Source: Octopus vulgaris
Lineage: Eukaryota
Direction: 5' to 3'
Length of the DNA: 64,000 bases
Assembly: GCA_951406725.2 (NCBI GenBank)
Contig: OX597826.1
Coordinates: 46,562,001-46,626,000, forward strand
Shown here: positions 6,945 through 59,525 of the stretch, piece by piece
How the letters are laid out: every line of letters starts with the position of its first letter
How positions within the stretch are numbered: the first letter of the stretch is position 1
The notes under the pieces: generated by a model
The model's database searches: none
What the model was told of the DNA's origin: nothing
Seen by the model: the letters and a program-made list of their open reading frames with translations, nothing else
Position numbers and translations under genes: made by a program

Positions 6945-7113
6945 ATCCTTTCTACTATTAGCAATAGGCCTGAAATTTTGGAGGAGGGGATAGTCGACAA
7001 TCGACCCCAGTACTCAACTGGTACTTAATTTATCGACCCCGTAAGGATGAAAGGCAAAGTCGACCTAGGCGGAATTTGAACTCAGAACGTAAAGACGGAC
7101 GAAATATCGCTAA
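6945..7113 (-). mobile_element. SINE family A, partial
   Basis: Family A central domain in reverse orientation. Confidence 0.85.
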
Positions 7114-7129
7114 ACGAGCAAAAGGGCAA

Positions 7130-8630
7130 AAGCTCGCTCGATCTCGATTTTCAGTAGGACTAAGCATGTTTTCGAGGCTTACGCACCCCACCTTCCTATC
7201 CGCTAGCCCCACCCAATCCACATATGCATCCAAAATAGCGTTCCAATGGACCACTAACACTAAAGAATGAGACGTTCTTAGAAAGGCCTTCAGGCGTCTG
7301 AAGAACCCGGCTGCCCCGTTCCAGTCGGTGCGTACACTGCAACCAGTTTGAAATTACTGCCTTCGTTATCGTTCACGTCTAGGACCATCGACTTATCTTC
7401 CGGGTCCAGGAAAACTGACCGTATGTCTAAATCCAGGCCTTTTCTGAACCCCCCCCCCCCCATTCCCGGTCGACTAAGAGATCCGAAAATCTCAAAGTCA
7501 TCGAAAATGGGAGCCAAGGCCCGTGTGACTACGATTCTGGTCTCACTGACGGCTATTACATCCAGACTTAGCCACCTGAGATCGTTGTGCAAGCGTCTTT
7601 GCTTCCATGACGGCCCCAGGCCACGTACGTTTAAACAACTTACTTTAAGAACCGTCATACTGGCCAGGAAGTAAGGAAAGGAAAAATGGAGTGTCATTTA
7701 CCCTCCTGGTGCTGTTTGTGGTGGAGTGATTCTCCCTTCCTGTCTGTTTTGTTGGGTTCCTTTGGAAACCCACTTAAAAGCCATCTGCTGGCCGTTACAC
7801 TGCGAGATCGAATGCCATACGGGTAGCTCCGCTTAATGCTCGTATAAGTCTCTAATGTCATTCGCACCATCATTAGTCTCTCTGGTACGCTAAAAGTGCT
7901 GGGGCTGCAGATCACCCAACTCTTTTTCAAAATTCTCGCTTTATGCTATGTGAGCCATTAGCTTTTCATTGGCCCTCCTCAGTCGCACGAAATTCCTACT
8001 ACTGCATGGATGGTTGTTGTTGTTGTTGTAGTAGTGTCATTTTTCTTTTTAAAATTTGCTGTTTCTGATTCTGTTGTGCGTGTTCGTGATGGTATTGGTG
8101 ATTGTGGTGTTTGTAATGTTGTTGTTGTCATTAGTGTCTGTGTTTGCCGTTTCTTAGATTTCTCCCTTTTTTCTGCGTCTCATTCTATTTTTTTTTGTTT
8201 TTTTTTGCCTTTTGGGCTTCCCCTTCATCATCACTTGGATACGTGGAGGAATCCGTGTCTTGTATGTTTTCTTCTGGTGTTGTTTGTTCTGGTTCTCTTG
8301 TAGTAGTTGTTGTTGTTTCTCTTGCTAGTGCAGCTTCCGCTGCTGGTGCTACTCCCACTGCCATCTTCACTGTAACACCTGCTTGTTTTGTCTCCTTTGG
8401 TTCAATTTCTGGTTCTATTCCCCTGCCTTTCTGTTGTTGTTGTAGTTGATGTTTTTGTTGACTCGTGGGTTGTGGTGCTTTCGTTTGCACATTTTCTTTC
8501 TGCCCTTTTATTCTAGTTCTATGGGCAGAAAAACCGTTAGTGGTCCGTTGAACCACAATCATCACACCTCCGCCTCCTGTCCTCCACGTTCATTCATAGT
8601 TCTACTTCAACACCTGAAGAAGTTTTCCAG
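7130..8630 (-). mobile_element. Tx1/L1-clade LINE fragment: ORF1 C-terminal half (CCHC knuckle) plus APE N-terminus
   Basis: RCDDCGSTDH*RFFCP knuckle near 8520-8570; LKVSCLNVRGL..DVIAVSETR..LVAVYAP..VHWNAILD (7150-7660). Confidence 0.85.
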
Positions 8631-9062
8631 CTCCTGTCGGAGACCACCAGTCTAAAGGCTCCACATTCGCTACCATTCACATCTAGGACCACCAACCTGC
8701 TGCCCGGGTTCAAGAATATCGTCTTTATTTCGAGATCTAAGGATTTTCGGAATAGCACTGCTAGCTCGACGCCAGCTCCCAAAAGACCACATGATGAGAA
8801 TATCTTAAAGTCATCGAAAATGGGCGCTAATGCTTGCGCATTAGAAATCTCTGTCTCGCTAATTGCGGCCACTTCTAATTGGAGCGACCTGAGGTCGTTT
8901 AGCAAGTGACCTTGTATCCAAGCTGACCCCAGGCCACGAACATTCATACACCCTACGCTGAAAACGACCATGGTTATCGGAGAAACATAATGGAAGATGG
9001 TCACTTACCTTGGATTTTGAGAGGGTCGGCTGATTCAGCTGCCTCGTCTGATGCATTATCAT
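8631..9062 (-). mobile_element. Second Tx1/L1 APE N-terminal fragment (diverged paralog)
   Basis: FSVGCMNVRGL..LNDLRSLQLEVAAISET..LAPIFDDF..FRKSLDL..VVLDVN, homologous to 7290-7697. Confidence 0.85.
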
Positions 9063-19939: not shown

Positions 19940-21995
19940 AACCTAAAGCACATCAAAAGCTACATAAGAGACGATATAGACATGCTTAACCACCTCCCCA
20001 AAACAGTCAATGAGAAAACCCTACTAGTATCCTTCGACGTAATTAACCTTTATTCAAACATCCCTCACACCCTAGGAATAGAAGCGATCACTTTCTGGCT
20101 AAACAACTACTCCTTTGAACTCCCAACTCGCATAAATAAAGAACTCATAATAGAAGGACTTTATTTTTGATAATAATTTCTACAGACAAAGATCGGGAAC
20201 AGCGATGGGTACGCGTACTGCGCCTTCTTTTGCCAACCTAGTGATGGGATGCCTCGAGAAAATACTCTACCAGAAAACACTCGAGAAATATGGAAACACT
20301 TTCTCCACCTATATCCAGAACAACTGGAAAATATATCTCGACGACTGCTTCATCCTCTGGGATGAAAGTATAGAAAAACTTGAGGAATTTAAAATACTAT
20401 TAAATGGAATAAATGAAAATATTCACGATAGATCATAACGAAGAACAGTTGCCATTTTTAGACATCCTCATTAAGAAAGTCGGCAACAAAATAGAGACAG
20501 ATATCTATTATAAACCGACAGACTCCAAGCAGTACCTACCCTTTGATTCATGCCACCCAAGACACACTAGAATAAATGTCCCTTTCTGTTTAGCCAGAAG
20601 GATTTGCACCATAATATCAGACACAAACACCCGACACACACGTCTCCAGGAACTCAGGACTACACTCATAAATAGAAATAACCCACAGCCCCTAATAGAC
20701 AGTGCAATCCAACGAGTACTTAAATTAAATATAAAAGACATGAGACAAACAAAACCAAAAAAGAAAGAAAAATGAAAAACCCTACCCTACATCTCTACAC
20801 ACAACCCACTTAACAATGAGGCCTTCAATACCATACTAGAAAACACAGCCCTACTAAAGGGAGACCCAAAGATGAACCGGATCCTCGAAACACACACCAT
20901 CATTAAAAGTAAACGGCAACCAAAATCCTTAAAAAAGATTTTAACCCAAGCTAAACTGCACTAAACAACAACCACAAAATCAGCAGTTAGAAAATGTGGA
21001 AAGACCAACTGCGGAATCTGTGTCATCTTGGTAGAAGGTTCAGAATTCACATTAGAACAAGACCATCAGTTTACCATCAGAACAAACTTCACCTGTGCAT
21101 CAGAAAACTTAATTTACGTCTTAACATGCGCAGGGTGCAATAGGCAGTATATAGGCCATACAAAAAACAGCTTACGAAAAAGGATGGCGGTGTATAAATC
21201 CCAAATTAGAAATCCTGAATACAGGAAAATACCAGTCAGCGGACACATAGATAGATGTGCTTCAAATAAAAATCCCAAATTCACAACTTGCCCACTTTAC
21301 AAATTCAGTGACAGCGTAACCTTCACTCAACGCCAAAATAAAGAACTTTATTTCATTAGAAAATTCGGACCAAGTTTGAACACCCTGGGTCAGCAATATT
21401 AAAACAATACATTGGTCTTCCGAAAAGAAAAAAGAAATTCTACCACAACCACCACGATCACTACGACTGCTACGACTATCACTACTACTACAACCACCAT
21501 GGTCACTACTATTACTACTACGATCAACAGTCCTTCACTACTGCTGCTGCTGCTACTGCCACAACCAATGAGCTGCTACAACCCCAACCACCACCACGGT
21601 TACTACTACTACTACGACTAACAGTCACTGTTGCTACTGCCATTTCAGCCACTGGCCATTCGGACACATAAGACAGCTAAAAACAACCACGTGGATTCTG
21701 TTGAGACCAGTAAGAAACAATTATGAACTTTTTTATTACACTCAACTTTAAATTTACAGCTATTATGCTTACTCCCCATTAAACACCACTACGTGGATTC
21801 TGTTGAGACCAGTAAGAAACAAAGATGAACTTTTTTTATTACACTTAACTTTTTAAAATATTTTTAATAAGGTTCGTTTTTTCAAGAACCGAAACATGTA
21901 AAATTTCTAAGAAAATTAAAATTTATCTTATATAGTGGCGTTTTCAAATTTCTTTTTATAAACATATACCCACTCGTATACGATCTACACTTATC

Positions 21996-21999
<4 letters not shown>
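19940..21999 (+). mobile_element. Penelope-like element (Neptune/Nematis type: RT, Cys linker, C-terminal GIY-YIG), 5'-truncated and decayed
   Basis: LVSFDVINLYSNIP, GTAMGTRTAPSFANL, YLDD, LPFLDI, YYKPT..SCHP, CGKTNCGIC linker, NLIYVLTCAGC..YIGHT..R..E..LN; 3' non-coding region with hammerhead-like motifs; (TA)n on both sides. Confidence 0.92.
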
Positions 22000-22050
<51 letters not shown>

Positions 22051-26190: not shown

Positions 26191-27318
26191 TCTACCAGCT
26201 TGCTACTCTTCTACCAGCTGGCTGCCTTTTCTACCAGCTTGCTGCCTTTTCTACCAGCTCGCCAGCTAAATATAAATAAGAATGAATGTATTTTCTACAA
26301 TTTTCTCTCTCTGACGAAGATTTATTACTTGAAACGTTCGTATTTTCGAAATGATCCCTCACATACCAATCTCTGGCCATGTGCCAAACTTTGAAACCAC
26401 TGTTAAACGCGTTGTCCAACTTCAAGTATTGATGAATTGTAAGTCAAGGCGCTTGCTTGGTTGGGGATGGAAGATATTCCAGCCGTGGCAATCCAATATT
26501 TCTTTAGTAGTGGTAGTGGTAAGGTCTGTGTAAGGCTATATTATCTAATTTGTCCCTATGTCCCTTTCGTATATTAGACGGTTGAGCGGGGGTTGAAGGT
26601 GCATATTTGTTATTTCTAACAACTTAAGCGACTACATAAAAGACTCCTTTCGATTCTCAGTTGTATAATGAGGTTGAAGATATTCCACACGTAAACATCC
26701 CATACATTTTTGGTAGCAGTTGTAGTAGGGACTAGTTATGACCATACAGGATGTTCATAAACTATCTTTACAATAGAAACTGAACATCGTCTAAATGTGT
26801 TGCTTGCAACCAATAGATCCCACGTGGAATAGTTCAGATATTTTTTATGAAAATTTATCTCTTTTGTGTAATGTTTATCGCCACATCAATATGGCTGTTC
26901 AAAGTTACTTCCGTTTAATGAATAGGCCGAAACAGTTCGGTCTAGTAATCTCGTCGAATGCTAGAAAATGATAGGGGTTTGCTCCCCTGCTTGCAATGTA
27001 TACAAGATGCGGCTTGCACCAATAACCAGTTGGCAAAGGCTCTGCCTGGGATTAAACAGTAGTAATGTTGAATAGCCTTATTAATGTGGCGACAAACATT
27101 ACTTCTCAATAGAGTTACTACCTTTATCTTTATTGAGATTTTTCTAACTAGCTATTTTGCTTTATCTCTGCCTGTTTTCCCATAATTTCTACCTGTTTTA
27201 TTTTGCTTTATCTCTGCCTGTTTTTCCATTATCTCTGCCTGTTTTCCTAAATATTATCCATATTTTTCAAATTTTTTCTGAATTTTTAAAAAAGTGTAAT
27301 AACCTATACTATCCAATA

Positions 27319-31006: not shown

Positions 31007-31375
31007 AAGGCGGCGAGCTGGCAGAAACGTTAGCGCGCCGGGCGAAATGCTTAGCAGTATTTCGTCTGCTGCTACATTTTGAGTTCAAATTCCGCCGAGG
31101 TTGACCTTGCCTTTCATCCTTTCGGGGTCGATTAAATAAGTACCAGTTACGCACTGGAGTCGATATAATCGACTTAATCCGTTTGTCTGTCCTTGTTTGT
31201 TTGTCCCCTCTGTGTTTAGCCCCTTGTGGACAGTAAAGAAATAAGAAATGTCAGCACGCCGGGCGAAATGCGTAGCCGTATTTCGTCTGCCGTTACGTTC
31301 TGAGTTCAAATTCCGCCGAGGTCGACTTGACCTATCATCCTTTCGGGGTCGATTAAATAAGTACCAGTTACGCAC
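31007..31375 (+). mobile_element. SINE family A, full copy plus partial tandem copy
   Basis: Full copy 31007-31245 followed by a re-initiated partial copy. Confidence 0.88.
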
Positions 31376-32998: not shown

Positions 32999-33975
32999 AA
33001 GGCGGCGAGCTGGCAGAAACGTTAGCACGCCGGGGCGAAATGCTTAGCAGTATTTCGTCTGCCGCTACGTTCTGAGTTCAAATTCCGCCGAGGTCGACTT
33101 TGCCTTTCATCCTTTCGGGGTCGATTAAATAAGTACCATTTACGCACTGGGGTCGATATAATCGACTTAATCCGTTTGTCTGTCCTTGTTTGTCCTCTCT
33201 GTGTTTAGCCCCTTGTGGGTAGTAAAGAAATAGGTATTTCGTCTGCCGCTACGTTCTGAGTTCAAATTCCGCCGAGGTCGACTTTGCCTTTCATCCTTCC
33301 GGGGTCGATTGAATAAGTACCAGTTATGCACTGGAGTCGATATAATCGACTTCATCCGTTTGTCTGTTCTTGTTTGTCCTCTTTGTGTTTAGCCTCTTGT
33401 GGGTAGTAAAGAAACAGGTATTTCGTCTGCCGCTACGTTCTGAGTTCAAATTCCGCCGAGGTCGACTTTGCCTTTCATCCTTTCGGGGTCGATTAAATAA
33501 GTACCATTTACGCACTGGGGTCGATATAATCGACTTAATCCGTTTGTCTGTCCTTGTTTGTCTTCTCTGTGTTTAGCCCCTTGTGGGTAGTAAAGAAACA
33601 GGTATTTCGTCAGCCGCTACGTTCTGAGTTCAAATTCCGCCGAGGTCGACTTTGCCTCTGATCCTTCCGGGGTCGATTGAATAAGTACCAGTTATGCACT
33701 GGAGTCGATATAATCGACTTCATCCGTTTGTCTGTCCTTGTTTGTCCTCTTTGTGTTTAGCCTCTTGTGGGTAGTAAAGAAATAGGTATTTCGTCTGCCG
33801 CAACGTTCTGAGTTCAAATTCCGCCGAGGTCGACTTTGCCTCTCATCCTTTCGGGGTCGATTAAATAAGTACCAGTTATGCACTGGGGTCGATATAATCG
33901 ACTTAATCCGTTTGTCTGTCCTTGTTTGTCCTCTCTGTGTTTAGCCCCGTGTGGGTAGTAAAGAAATAGATATTT

Positions 33976-33976
<1 letters not shown>
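32999..33976 (+). repeat. SINE family A tandem array: one head plus five 184-bp body units
   Basis: Unit starts at 33233, 33417, 33601 and 33785 (exact 184-bp period). Confidence 0.92.
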
Positions 33977-34011
<35 letters not shown>

Positions 34012-38093: not shown

Positions 38094-38628
38094 CCTTTAG
38101 GTATTCTGTTAAATGTAATGCTTAATTATTCGCATAGTTTCGAATTAAACATATATTATCTTGCAGTTTTGGGGATTTGAATGTGGTTAGCACGTCGGGT
38201 TCAAAATCATGAAATAGTGAGTTCCATTCCTGGACAAGGCTGTGTGTTATGTTCTTGTGCAAGACACTTTATTTCACGTTGCTCCAGTTCACTCAGCTGT
38301 AGAAATGAGTTGCGACATCACGGGTGCCAAGCTGCATCGGCCTCTCTACCTTTCCTTTGGATAACTTCGGTGCCGTGGAGAGGGGAGGTTGGTATGCGTG
38401 GGTGACTGCTGGTCTTCTAGAGATAACCTTGTTCGGACTTGTGCCTCGGAGGGTAACGTTCTAGGTGCAATTCCATGGTCATTCATGACCGAAGGGGTGG
38501 TCTGTTTTTGTATATTATTAGAAAAACATTGCAGGGTAAGTATGAGAGAGGTCTGATCTGCCCAGTTTGAACAAAAAAACAGGTGGAATATTTGGGCGTG
38601 ATATGGCCAGTTTGAATGCCCTAAAGGG
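38094..38628. mobile_element. piggyBac-type MITE with a nested SINE D (38180-38500)
   Basis: TTAA|CCTTTAGG...CCCTAAAGGG|TTAA; related sequence at 47500-47705. Confidence 0.75.
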
Positions 38629-39056
38629 TTAACGTTCTTCTCAACTAGAAAAATTATGATAGAGCAAGTGAGAAGACTGAGATCTAGGATTATAGGCACA
38701 GTATATCTGATAAGCTGCTAAGCGGTTTTCTTTCACGCAATTTCACTGATAACGATTGTTTTGATTCGAGATTACAAAAAATCAGACACTTGCACAACAT
38801 GCCCGATATGCTGGTGTGATGGAATCTGGGACCATGTGATTTTGAACGAAACCTCTTAAACATTTCCACCCACATACATACATGCACACACACATACCTT
38901 ACTTAAAAAAGTATGTCTGTGTGTTTATATATATATGTATGTATGTATAAATTCATAACTACATCTACACGCATATACACTCACATGTACACACCTACAC
39001 ACACGCAAACACATTGTCATATAGATGCATATGTACATGTATGTCTACCTACCTAC

Positions 39057-51732: not shown

Positions 51733-52033
51733 TATCACGTGATCACGTGACCGACCAGACCATCAGATGTTTTACACATCGCTGGTTACAATGCGTTCGC
51801 ATTCTTTTAGCCTTCGAATGACACCACCCCGCTGGCTAAGCGAGCAGGTCAACAGAAGAAAGAGAGAGAGAAAGAGTGGTGAAAGAGTACAGCAGGGATC
51901 CCCCCCCTGCCGGAGCCTCGTGGAGCTTTTAGGTGTTTTCGCTCAATAAACACTCACAACGCCCGGTCTGGGAATCGAAACCGCGATCCTTCGACCGCGA
52001 GTCCGCTGCCCTAACCTCTAGGCCATTGCGCCT
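51733..52033 (-). mobile_element. SINE family C, tail type 1
   Basis: Reverse copy of 45287-45597; ATCAGATTAT flanking duplication. Confidence 0.9.
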
Positions 52034-52063
52034 ATCAGATTATACTATCAGATTATACTATAT

Positions 52064-52284
52064 TTATTTCTTTATTACCCAAGGGGCTAAACACAGAGGG
52101 GACAAAGAAAAGGTTTAAGTCGATTGCATCGACCCCAGTGCGTAACTGGTACTTATTTTATCGACCCCGAAAGGATGAAAGGCAAAGTCGACCTCGGCGA
52201 AATTTGAACTCAGAACGTCACAACAGACGAAATACCGCTAAGCATTTCCCCCGGCGTGCTAACGTTTCTGCCAGCTCGCCGCCA
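52064..52284 (-). mobile_element. SINE family A
   Basis: Near-consensus; flanked by CAGA(T/C)TATACTATATT duplication. Confidence 0.88.
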
Positions 52285-54468: not shown

Positions 54469-54509
54469 GTCTGTTTGTCTGTCTGTGTGTATAGACGTAT
54501 TTAAGATTT

Positions 54510-54950
54510 AGTGATAGTATGTTGTCAACTTAATGTGACAGTCCCATGAAAGGGAAGAATGCTACTGTTATTTAGCTCTGAGAGATTTAGAAATGTATTA
54601 TTGCTATTTTTAAAAGTCAGTGAATGTATTTCACTTGAAATATATATGTTTCCAAAGGCGAATAGGCATCGACAGCTAGCAAACCATGCTATTCCAGACT
54701 AATGGTGAGCAATGACTCTGAAAATAGTCTCTAGATGCTGGCTTTGCTTGGTGGAAAAGCTTGTCTCCCTTTTGAAAACATAAGGACACATGAAACGTCA
54801 AGCCCAACAGTAAACGGTGTTTCTTAGGGCTAAATAACAGTAGCATTCTTCCCTTTCATGGGACTGTCACATTAAGTTGACAACATACTATCACTTTATC
54901 ATGCTGTTACTGTATAAATCTCTCTGAGAGATTTAGAAATGTATTATTTC
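54510..54950. mobile_element. Non-coding element with PLE-style inverted plus partial-tandem structure
   Basis: Perfect 67-bp inverted repeat 54510-54576 / 54829-54895; direct repeat CTCTGAGAGATTTAGAAATGTATTATT at 54576 and 54922 (346-bp period). Confidence 0.75.
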
Positions 54951-55112: not shown

Positions 55113-55227
<115 letters not shown>

Positions 55228-55231
55228 TGTA

Positions 55232-55311
<80 letters not shown>

Positions 55312-55322
55312 TATATATATAT

Positions 55323-55396
<74 letters not shown>

Positions 55397-55398
<2 letters not shown>

Positions 55399-56240
55399 TT
55401 CAACAATTGAGGGTAAAATTAATTAATTAATCAATTTCACCAAGTATTCAGTATACAAAGGGACCATTTAAGGCGAATTCAAATTATTACATTATATAAA
55501 AGGGCTTAGTAAAATAAATTACTTTGCCGCATACTGAACTCATTAGAAATAGCAGCTAAAAAAACTTTTTTAAAAACTTTCTTTAAGTATTGGAGATAGT
55601 TTTAAAAAGTTTTTTTTAGCTGCTATTTCTAATGAGTTCAGTATGCGGCAAAGTAATTTATTTTACTAAGCCCTTTTATATAATGTAATAATTTGAATTC
55701 GCCTTAAATGGTCCCTTTGTATACTGAATACTTGGTGAAATTGATTAATTAATTAATTTTACCCTCAATTGTTGAAATTATAATTCATCTCTCTCTATAT
55801 AATGCCTCGGATTTTACCGAAAAAAGCATAATGTTTGCTGATTTTAACCCACGCTGGTGGAAAGGGGAGAGCAGAAATTCTTCGTTTGCATATTTGAATT
55901 TGCTAACACTGTTAGTTTTGAACAGATCTTCAGAAGCGATAACAGGCCGAAAGGGTATGTTCCCGCTTTCAGTGTTTTCAAATCCAAACCAGGGAGTTCT
56001 GAGCTGATGATAGAAGTGTCGATTTGACTAATCTTGAAACGTACGTTCTCAAATAACCTTTGCATTTGATTTTTTAATGTCTCTACCCTCATACTTTCGT
56101 GAGTTGAATTGAGCAAACACTATACGAGAGAGATTTTCTTTAAGTATTGGAGATAGTTTTAAAAAAGTTTTTTTAGCTGCTATTTCTAATGAGTTCAGTA
56201 TGCGGCAAAGTAATTTATTTTACTAAGCCCTTTTATATAA
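55397..56240 (+). mobile_element. Non-autonomous PLE/retrozyme-like element: inverted arm + 557-bp monomer + partial tandem, in (TA)n
   Basis: About 180-bp near-perfect inverted arms 55397-55577 / 55598-55778; direct repeat at 55578 and 56135; internal hammerhead. Confidence 0.8.
56000..56051 (+). ncRNA. Minimal type I hammerhead ribozyme
   Basis: Stem I UGAG/CUCA, intact core CUGAUGA, stem II AGA..GUC/GAC..UCU, GAAA, palindromic stem III C-GUAC-G, GUU cleavage triplet. Confidence 0.7.
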
Positions 56241-57507
56241 TATATATATATACATATATTCATCAATATGTTTACATACCTATCTATAAGTGTGTGTGAG
56301 TATGCATATATGGAAAGGGAAGAGGGACAGAGGGAAGGAGACAAAGAATAGAAGAGAAAATAATGGGTGAATAAAAAGGAACAAATCCTCGATGGCGTTT
56401 ACGTATGTTTTATATATACGCAACAGTGTGGTTTTGTTATAAGTGCGTGACGTGTCTTCCATTGCTAAACATTCCAGCAACATATGTTGTACACAAAATG
56501 GCCGCCGCTCAAGTAAATTCTCCCCTTCCACCATTTTTATCATAAGGTGTTATAGTTGTTACTTTTGTTGCCGGACTCCCCATTTACTTAACAAGATATG
56601 ACACTTCCCGCTGGGGATACTGTATTCTACAGCCATCCAATCGTACGGCTGGCTGTCGGGATAAGTTAATTCCACTCCTATTTTTAAATTGTATGAAAAT
56701 TGTTTGTGACGCTGACTGTAAAAAATATAGAAGAAAAGAGGGGAGAAACGCTGATCAGACGGATATCGTTCAAACTTCCTTTATGCGCCAGATCCTTTTA
56801 TAGACTTAAAGACATTCTTTTACATTCCATAATCCACGACATAACAAATAGAAAAAAAAAAGGAACAAAAAGGAAGAGAAAGTAACAGAGACAAATATAA
56901 CTTTTTTTTCTTTGTTTTACGATTGTATTGTTTCTATTTTCAATAATTTCTTTTCTTTTCTTTGTATTTGCTTAAGCACACTCCTTGTTGTAAACTTATT
57001 CAAATGCTGTTTATTACATGTTGCAAAATAAACTTCCTTACAAGGCGCCGTAGAAATGGCTTGAAGGTAAACAATATTTAGCAAACGGATTACGGTCTTA
57101 ATTAACAATTGGAATTTTTTTTCAAATAAACAGCGATGTTTCCTCCCACCTCTCACTTTCATTCTCCAGAAAATTGTTTTATAATAATAAAAAAATAATA
57201 ACAAAACAAAGCGAAACAAAAAAGAAATGCCGTATAATGCGGTATATGTATCGGTTTTCTGTCTTACACTTCAACATTACAGGGTGGAAAGTCTTTCATG
57301 TAACGACACTAAATTTAGCGACAAAAAATGTAAGACATAACTTGGCATTAAATTGCCAAACAAGAGGGTCGGTAGGAGGTACAAAACAATTATAGATGAT
57401 AATTAGTCTAAGGATTTGAATTAATAAGCAATTAGACAACTGACATTGCGTTTGGAAGTCAATGGCGGAATTAACATCAGCAGAGTTCGTACTGACGCCA
57501 AATTCAT

Positions 57508-58532: not shown

Positions 58533-58600
<68 letters not shown>

Positions 58601-58601
<1 letters not shown>

Positions 58602-58999
58602 CTTTATATATAAAAGAGAAGTAGTGAGTCTGTCTCCTACGATTTAGATTCCTAACTACTCCCACATTTTGCGGTGCAGTTTAACCCAAACCGGGTATCT
58701 TATAGTCGTGATTCATATCGAGCTCTTCTGGGTATTAGCGCGCGTCTACGATGAGTCTACGATTTAAAAAAATATTTAGCATCATTTCTTTCCATTTTAA
58801 TGCATTTTTTTCGCTATTATATACGGGAAGTAACTCTCTAAAAATGTCTACGATGAGTCAACGATTTAAAAAAAAATTTACCATAATTTTTTTTCCATTT
58901 TTAATGCATTTTTTTGCTATTTTGTGGCTATAACTCTCTAAAAATGCTTATATAGTTATTTCCCTTACAAACACGAGCAACGCCGGGCGATACTGCTAG
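58601..58999 (+). mobile_element. Non-autonomous Helitron
   Basis: A|TC 5' end, subterminal GC-rich hairpin CGAGCAACGCCGGG, CTAG|T 3' end, no TSD; internal ~100-bp duplication starting GTCTACGATGAGTC. Confidence 0.85.
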
Positions 59000-59004
59000 T
59001 ACTT

Positions 59005-59210
59005 AATAAAAAGGGTTCAGCAAAGATTTGCTTTATCACATACCGAAGTTTAGAAACAGCAGCCAAAAATCTTAGCTATTTCTTCTACTTTAAAAAGAGA
59101 CTTAAGTATTACTTAAGTTTACCGTGAAATGGTCCTTTTTTCATACCGAATTCTACTTGGTGAAATTATTGATTACTTCTTAATTAATTAATTTTACCCT
59201 TTGTTTTATA
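59005..59210. mobile_element. Diverged relative of the 55397-56240 element
   Basis: TTAGAAACAGCAGCCAAAA arm plus AAATGGTCC..TACTTGGTGAAATT..AATTAATTAATTTTACCCT terminus before (TA)n. Confidence 0.65.
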
Positions 59211-59525
59211 TATATATATAGCGTACTGTTTACCTCTTTGTAGAATCAGTAAAATCGTGCATCATGTGTATGTGTATTTGTGTGTGTGTGTGTGTGTGAG
59301 TGTGTGTGTGTGTGTGTGTGTTGTGCAGGTTAAGGTGTGTTTGTGTGTATGTTTTCGTGTAAGAGTGTATCCTGAAGCCAATGATGTAAAAAGGATTAAA
59401 TAAAAGTATGTTTCAAAATGATCAGAAAACATACATATGTCCTGTGTATATAAGACACAGAATGAAAAAGTGCAAAAAAACTGAATAAATTAATGACCTG
59501 ATTGAACATTTGTTAATTACGTGAT

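Follow-up and report, generated by a model that had tools for sequence, protein, structure and literature searches.

Organization of the Element

The 64-kb window, by which we mean the whole stretch of Octopus vulgaris DNA analysed here (64,000 nucleotides), harbors at positions 55397–56240 a short element that is enclosed by two (TA)n runs and consists of an inverted arm, a truncated copy and one 557-bp unit. The left target microsatellite, a (TA)n tract with a (CA)n block, spans 55113–55396 and is directly followed by a 5′-truncated copy in minus-strand orientation (55397–55578), which is the reverse complement of 55598–55778. On the plus strand, a 106-bp 5′-truncated upstream copy (55578–55683), which repeats 56135–56240 and is the equivalent of a pseudo-LTR (pLTR), precedes the full non-coding unit (55684–56240, ∼34% GC), whose 3′ end merges into the right target microsatellite, again (TA)n (56241–56256). 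All 180 aligned bases of the inverted arm have been found identical to those of 55598–55778 (3 gap letters), and 105/105 aligned bases agree between 56135–56240 and 55578–55683 at a spacing of 557 (2 gap letters). The gap letters of both alignments fall into the same A/T homopolymer patch, and substitutions amount to 0 in 285 aligned bases. Accordingly, the insertion is regarded as recent, and with a rate at which a JC distance of 0.09 equals 25 My (PMC13282606), it may be younger than ∼1.5 My, unless the arms have been homogenised. At one end only, the inverted arm projects past the point where the direct arm has its 3′ end, and this results in a tail of 95 nt (55397–55491). A target-site duplication is not discernible in the (TA)n that flanks the element on both sides.

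Within the element, stop-to-stop frames reach at most 80–91 aa, none of which is credible, and 0/3 have matched Pfam. ORF, Pfam and similarity checks have likewise revealed no RT plus GIY-YIG ORF of an autonomous Penelope-like element (PLE) in the 557-bp unit, and a bacterial-type promoter scan of the DNA has remained at chance level (2 found vs. 2.7 expected). A preliminary description of the locus had named an ∼180-bp inverted arm between (TA)n runs and a 557-bp monomer without credible ORF, both of which are borne out by these data. It had further placed a partial second monomer behind the first; the 557 repeat stands, but the order has to be reversed, as PLE convention puts the truncated copy before the unit at 55684–56240. 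The PLE-type insertion anatomy that it had recognized is present in all its parts, namely the partial tandem, the inverted copy, the one-sided tail and the (TA)n target.

The Hammerhead Motif

On the plus strand of the unit, a type I hammerhead motif with intact core and a weak, interrupted stem II is located at 56000–56051. Stem I comprises 4 bp formed by UGAG (56000–56003) and CUCA (56048–56051), the core boxes are CUGAUGA (56004–56010) and GAAA (56036–56039), and stem III is reduced to 2 bp with a palindromic loop, where the 8-nt palindrome ACGUACGU (56039–56046) yields a computed duplex energy of −9.8 kcal/mol. The triplet GUU (56045–56047) places the predicted cut after 56047, exactly where cleavage had been expected beforehand. 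These features agree with the traits of PLE minimal type I hammerheads, i.e., a CUGANGA/GAAA core, an NUH triplet, a helix I of 4–5 bp and a palindromic 15.2–16.2/loop 3. In contrast, the helix II of 7–8 bp with G10.1–C11.1 that is typical of PLE minimal hammerheads (PMC4209133), and which lies outside the search descriptor, is absent: stem II consists of 3+3 interrupted bp closed by U·U (−2.8 kcal/mol, z −0.35). A U·U base of helix II has been reported for HHR_Amex2 of the axolotl. The minimal type I hammerhead of the preliminary description is thus retained with regard to stem I, core, stem III and GUU but not with regard to stem II, and 56000–56051 is assigned to this type with the reservation that it is atypical.

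A scan with hammerhead models, which had been proposed along with the motif, has given a divided answer. The type I descriptor matches 56000–56051 as the sole site on both strands of the window and has been matched in just 2/5000 dinucleotide shuffles of the unit, whereas Rfam hammerhead models account for 0/97 matches in one search and 0/2 in another; the Rfam matches of the element belong to hairpin and microsatellite families only, all below the gathering score. One may hence suspect that the hammerhead is a chance match and the inverted and tandem layout an assembly artefact beside a long microsatellite, all the more as the arms are identical save for homopolymer lengths. The rarity of the descriptor in shuffled sequence, the recurrence of the 557 period in independent sequencing runs and an older relative with the same layout (see below) argue against such a reading, which we hold to be very improbable.

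The insertion contains one hammerhead only. Within the folded unit, the hammerhead pairs checked have probabilities of 0.22–0.46, and free co-folding of two hammerhead stretches has paired their 3′ halves, including the palindrome, without catalytic geometry, a result that is uninformative on activity. Cleavage by minimal hammerheads is poor even in dimeric form, and pairs of them have been described at distances of 100–700 bp, located on opposite strands (PMC4209133). As the 5′ ends at the internal junction of the element (55578 and 55598) lie 87–107 nt downstream of the cut-site equivalent, cleavage has left no footprint in the junctions. Elsewhere in the window, the core words CTGACGA and GAAAC have been noticed at 26311–26345; they lack stem I, fail the descriptor and are probably due to chance.

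Predicted Fold and Sequence Variation

Fold prediction has suggested a rod-like RNA domain at 55787–56134 on the plus strand, from which the hammerhead emerges as a side branch. The rod would be held together by helices such as 55787–55795/56126–56134 (9 bp, mean pair probability 0.97) and 55832–55839/56112–56119 (8 bp, 0.97). The predicted fold of the unit has a z of −4.7, with 0/100 shuffles as good, and reaches z −7.4 against 40 shuffles when the unit is folded as a circle; the minus strand folds almost equally well (z −4.4). Among 32 control stretches (of 58 candidates) two are at least as low in fold z, one of them MITE-like. Introducing the 9 near-fixed letters of the family has given a fold energy of −148.9 vs. 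a null of −139.7 ± 4.9, and 9/244 random changes were as good. Two stretches of the window deserve mention for their own folds. A MITE-like sequence at 54505–54900 lies ∼500 bp upstream of the element and is bounded by terminal inverted repeats of 79 bp that agree at 95%; its fold z is ∼−18. A non-microsatellite stretch at 38432–38988, in which a search for long inverted repeats has been negative, has a fold z of −5.9 against 10 shuffles.

Variation within the family has been assessed on 40 of 44 variant rows (5% level). None of these 40 variants falls on the 38 constrained hammerhead positions (P = 0.053), and those inside the hammerhead are restricted to N7 (56008) and the stem II loop (56022–56023). 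The variant-poor core is suggestive of constraint, as distinct from covariation: no covariation has been seen in the hammerhead stems, and since these rows hold no stem variant, there is nothing to covary. On the predicted fold, 19/40 variants break a pair vs. 17.1 expected (P = 0.81), which gives no hint of conserved pairing, and no compensatory pair occurs among the 40. The longest runs free of these variants, 55630–55718 and 55730–55785, include both arm ends.

An Older Relative and Other Repeats in the Window

The 3′ domain of the unit has an older relative at 58997–59214, which is composed of an inverted arm (58997–59069, 73% identity, E 7e-7) and a direct arm (59108–59214, 71% identity, E 1.4e-8) that ends in (TA)n. 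It shares the inverted-plus-direct layout of the element, and its arms end at approximately the same two sites, although swapped (n = 2 insertions). It is adjoined at ∼58600–59000 by another short element, which contains two internal repeats of ∼100 bp, ends in a small hairpin plus CTAGT and by its look may be a non-autonomous Helitron.

The two insertions of the window are short and occur dispersed; of their four outer ends, three border immediately on (TA)n. These properties bear on the possibility that the family is a PLE-derived satellite with a vestigial hammerhead, amplified mainly at the DNA level by unequal crossover, in which the inverted arm has originated from self-priming or fold-back rather than from two-strand priming. 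Local tandem amplification of PLE ends has indeed been proposed, and cleavage has been reported for 1/9 tested dimers from Xenopus (Li et al., 2026; bioRxiv 10.64898/2026.07.22.740005), head-to-head arms have been explained by self-priming on an antisense template (Arkhipova et al., 2013; PMC3846280), and stem II is weak. Dispersed short insertions that abut (TA)n and a core that is unchanged among the listed variants, N7 excepted, speak against a satellite of this kind, and we consider it quite improbable.

A broken PLE at ∼19970–22000 has retained GIY-YIG (E 3.4e-6) and a trace of RVT_1 (E 0.0013, below cut-off), carries a CxxxxCxxC linker and ends in (TA)n. The linker is a mark of Neptune/Nematis (PMC8557442). 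Read from these remains, the relic shows that such elements strike the same (TA)n targets in the window. Its 3′ non-coding part contains a short duplicated block and GAAAC half-hammerhead-like words, with no intact core. A comparison of the relic with the element has yielded AT-rich noise only (best E 0.014), its homolog P0001, one among 68 candidates, has no tblastn match to the element, and the 3′ end of the unit finds no counterpart in this relic, the one PLE relic of the window. From the (TA)n target and the relic, the partner would probably be Neptune-type. Naiads prefer (TA)n as well, but they have no canonical hammerheads, and only remnants are described from cephalopods (PMC8557442). 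In O. vulgaris, 190 families of PLEs are known, and recent insertions have been recorded for 31 of these; hammerheads and non-autonomous PLEs find no mention in the part of that text considered here (PMC13282606).

Several unrelated repeats accompany the element. One short interspersed repeat occurs in many copies, e.g., at 255–380, 6974–7150, 31085–31260, 33814–33980 and 52015–52250, and gives rise to near-identical spurious peptides. Such a peptide matches a UniRef entry from Octopus bimaculoides at 81% (1 match in 260 candidates), in support of an octopus as the host, and this "uncharacterized protein" is probably the repeat mis-annotated as a gene. Two frames on the minus strand (7290–7697 and 8594–9004) presumably represent remnants of APE endonucleases from L1/Tx1-type LINEs.

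A Multi-Copy Family in Sequencing Contigs

The unit or a part of it is present in 20/21 runs among those listed, which bear 4 organism labels and originate from 9 studies; none of the listed runs with the unit is marked as RNA. Four runs have been compared with a one-period stretch (55630–56186) divided into 30 bins. The DNA run X1, read to ∼80% and perhaps obtained from the very sample that the window comes from, contributes 3985 matching contigs, and X5, a DNA run that has another organism label and study, contributes 2681; 30/30 bins are covered in each. X3 adds 7 contigs at a depth of 2.5–7, which have been used as sequence only, as its RNA nature is a guess, and X17 has been excluded as too thin (2 pieces, depth 2, 18/30 bins). 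The 16 X1 and X5 pieces among those listed differ from the unit by 3–13 letters at depths of 21–1434. Throughout these pieces, the path leads from the tail over the hammerhead to the 3′ end as in the unit, and even diverged copies (7–13 letters per ∼95 away) keep the same path of 557 nt. A joint that goes back by 557 has been found in 11 X1 contigs, 11 X5 contigs and one 315-nt contig of X3. These observations support a multi-copy family over a one-off sequence, as judged from contigs of at most ∼115 nt (X1, X5), with 26 of 6752 pieces shown and no piece among them spanning the unit; positions 55779–55785, 55839–55851 and 56021–56028 are bridged by overlapping pieces, where no single listed piece has 31 letters on each side.

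Does the 557-bp unit propagate on its own? According to the main competing view, an autonomous PLE has the unit as its 3′ module, which is tandemly repeated and bears the hammerhead, and the insertion has been 5′-truncated before the ORF. Most PLE insertions are 5′-truncated, and genomic minimal hammerheads are mostly lone motifs of truncated PLEs (PMC4209133). The relic in the window has a duplicated block in the corresponding 3′ non-coding part, and short contigs are compatible with an ORF further upstream of the tandem units. On the other hand, the share of contigs that continue into unlike sequence is 0 in 4/4 runs, where branches are under-detected because only 128 and 121 contigs were partly placed. 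The 12 loose ends shown (of 165) all appear by eye to be unit variants, two or three short ones being ambiguous, and no branch into an ORF occurs among the contig joints and loose ends listed. As the path moreover closes at 557 in diverged copies and the unit is devoid of any ORF remnant, we rate the truncated module as unlikely. With the 557-nt path kept in diverged copies and no ORF branch listed, the short unit instead looks independently amplified.

Summed contig depth, which is not a copy number, dips to 14 and 7% of its maximum. A deletion junction or a truncation gradient has been considered as the origin of these dips and rejected, because they follow the density at which the copy differs from the family (rho −0.56 and −0.71; 27 of 30 bins, 3 edge bins dropped). 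On average, the copy departs from the family by ∼3% (40 listed sites). Nine differences are near-fixed, and two of these lie in duplicated parts and are common to both copies, for which reason they have been inherited from the source copy. Exact-pattern scans have returned 0 stretches in viral_contigs, metagenome_contigs and genome_contigs. The preliminary description had called the element young. This holds for the insertion, with its arms free of substitutions, but not for the family, which, from its ∼3% spread, the relative of 71–73% identity nearby and the 4 organism labels, is to be seen as diversified rather than young.

Proposed Mechanism of Insertion

Taken as a whole, the element is probably best described as a non-autonomous, retrozyme-like passenger of PLEs, copied in trans from an RNA that was longer than one unit and crossed the cut site. 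Transcription of a tandem source locus would provide such an RNA. A PLE protein with RT and GIY-YIG domains would then bind the conserved 3′ domain and nick both strands of the (TA)n site, and from each nick, cDNA synthesis would be primed at either of two internal start sites that correspond to the 55683-equivalent and 55778 and are separated by 95 nt. One of the cDNAs would pass over the hammerhead cut site and attain 663 nt, the second would attain ∼180 nt, and their ends would be joined head to head. If both arms were copied from one RNA, the template would have comprised at least 758 nt across 56047/56048. Several precedents are known for these steps. The PLE layout has been described as a partial tandem with an inverted 5′-truncated copy, a one-sided tail and a (TA)n bias (Craig et al., 2021; PMC8557442). 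For an Anolis PLE, the protein has been reported to nick and extend both strands of AT-rich DNA, with RT starting at two internal sites whose spacing equals the tail and with hammerhead cleavage being unneeded for insertion in vitro (Frangieh et al.; PMC11167929). In a rotifer, pLTR sequences alone have supported trans-integration (PMC3846280). By analogy, a two-site, two-strand model accounts for both insertions of the window, in each of which every arm would end at one of the two sites.

Since the 663-nt long arm crosses the cut site, the template is expected to have been either an uncleaved multimer or a ligated circle. Provided that both arms stem from one RNA, we lean towards the multimer, because minimal hammerheads cleave poorly, cleavage was found in one of nine Xenopus dimers and stem II is weak; seen together with the published low activity of PLE hammerheads, the single hammerhead and the weak stem II give an uncleaved multimer no worse odds as the template than a circle. 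Under the same premise, the ligated circle has somewhat less than an even chance, and the rod fold, the conserved core and the abundant circles of mussel retrozymes (PMC7229834) speak in its favor. A more far-reaching version, in which the unit forms an abundant viroid-like circular RNA through cleavage by dimeric minimal hammerheads and serves a Neptune-type PLE as template for rolling-circle, two-strand TPRT from start sites 95 nt apart, appears rather doubtful to us. If true, it would define a cephalopod retrozyme whose insertions retain the full PLE footprint and would offer a ready system for testing the copying of RNA circles by PLE proteins.

Comparison With Known Systems

That animal retrozymes are PLE derivatives has already been proposed, mainly for vertebrates, and their mobilisation by PLEs has been put forward for vertebrates only, on the grounds of co-occurrence and of similarity to pLTRs (Li et al., 2026); non-autonomous PLEs such as MRC1 are known (PMC8557442). 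As the concept is already in print, the element constitutes a clean extension and no new class. The genome paper on the giant squid merely counts 235 hammerhead-1 matches in the part considered here (PMC6962438), and a cephalopod family of the hammerhead-bearing non-autonomous PLE type has no description in the literature searched, although Repbase, Dfam or the O. vulgaris library may already catalogue it. The contribution of the octopus locus lies in the footprint of PLE insertion, which is here borne by a molluscan hammerhead unit that is itself short and non-coding, and in a cDNA that would have crossed the cut site; the choice between circle and uncleaved multimer thereby becomes a direct test on a high-copy family.

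Animal non-LTR retrozymes resemble the element in their short, low-GC, non-coding, self-paired head-to-tail units with a type I hammerhead, and their mobilisation by PLEs has been proposed (PMC7229834; bioRxiv 10.64898/2026.07.22.740005). The unit is non-coding and highly self-paired, has less than 45% GC and contains a type I hammerhead. Its 557 nt exceed the 170–400 nt of invertebrate circles (PMC7229834) but fall within the 51–972 bp given by Li et al. Retrozymes possess two consecutive hammerheads, whereas the insertion has one, and the two or more successive units, each bearing a complete hammerhead, by which Li et al. recognize an "active" retrozyme are not found within it. For this reason, we class the insertion among non-autonomous elements of PLE type that carry a hammerhead motif; by analogy, it works like a non-LTR retrozyme, with no membership being claimed. 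Conversely, the inverted arm, tail and (TA)n target seen here do not figure as evidence in the sections of the retrozyme papers considered here (PMC7229834; Li et al., 2026).

EN+ PLEs (Neptune, Penelope/Poseidon) share the partial tandem, the inverted 5′-truncated copy, the one-sided tail and the AT-rich target (PMC4209133, PMC8557442, PMC11167929, PMC3846280), and the minimal hammerheads of their pLTRs share the 4-bp helix I and the palindromic helix III (PMC4209133). They differ in carrying an RT/GIY-YIG ORF at a period of ∼3 kb, in contrast to the ORF-less 557 bp of the unit, in tails of 30–40 nt (PMC8557442) compared with 95 nt, and in a helix II of canonical length and closure, compared with the weak one of the octopus motif. 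The traits of non-autonomous EN+ PLEs are found in the truncated tandem copy, the adjacent 5′ inverted copy, the one-ended tail and the (TA)n target, and also in the non-coding character and the amplification as a short unit, the latter read from short contigs that are compatible with an upstream ORF. A parallel in this respect is provided by Chlamys elements such as MRC1 of Chlamydomonas, which are likewise non-autonomous PLE derivatives with pLTRs and head-to-tail copies (PMC8557442). MRC1-type Chlamys elements have 3′ ends in common with a known partner and belong to a mostly hammerhead-less clade (PMC8557442), whereas the octopus element, for which no partner has been found, carries a hammerhead.
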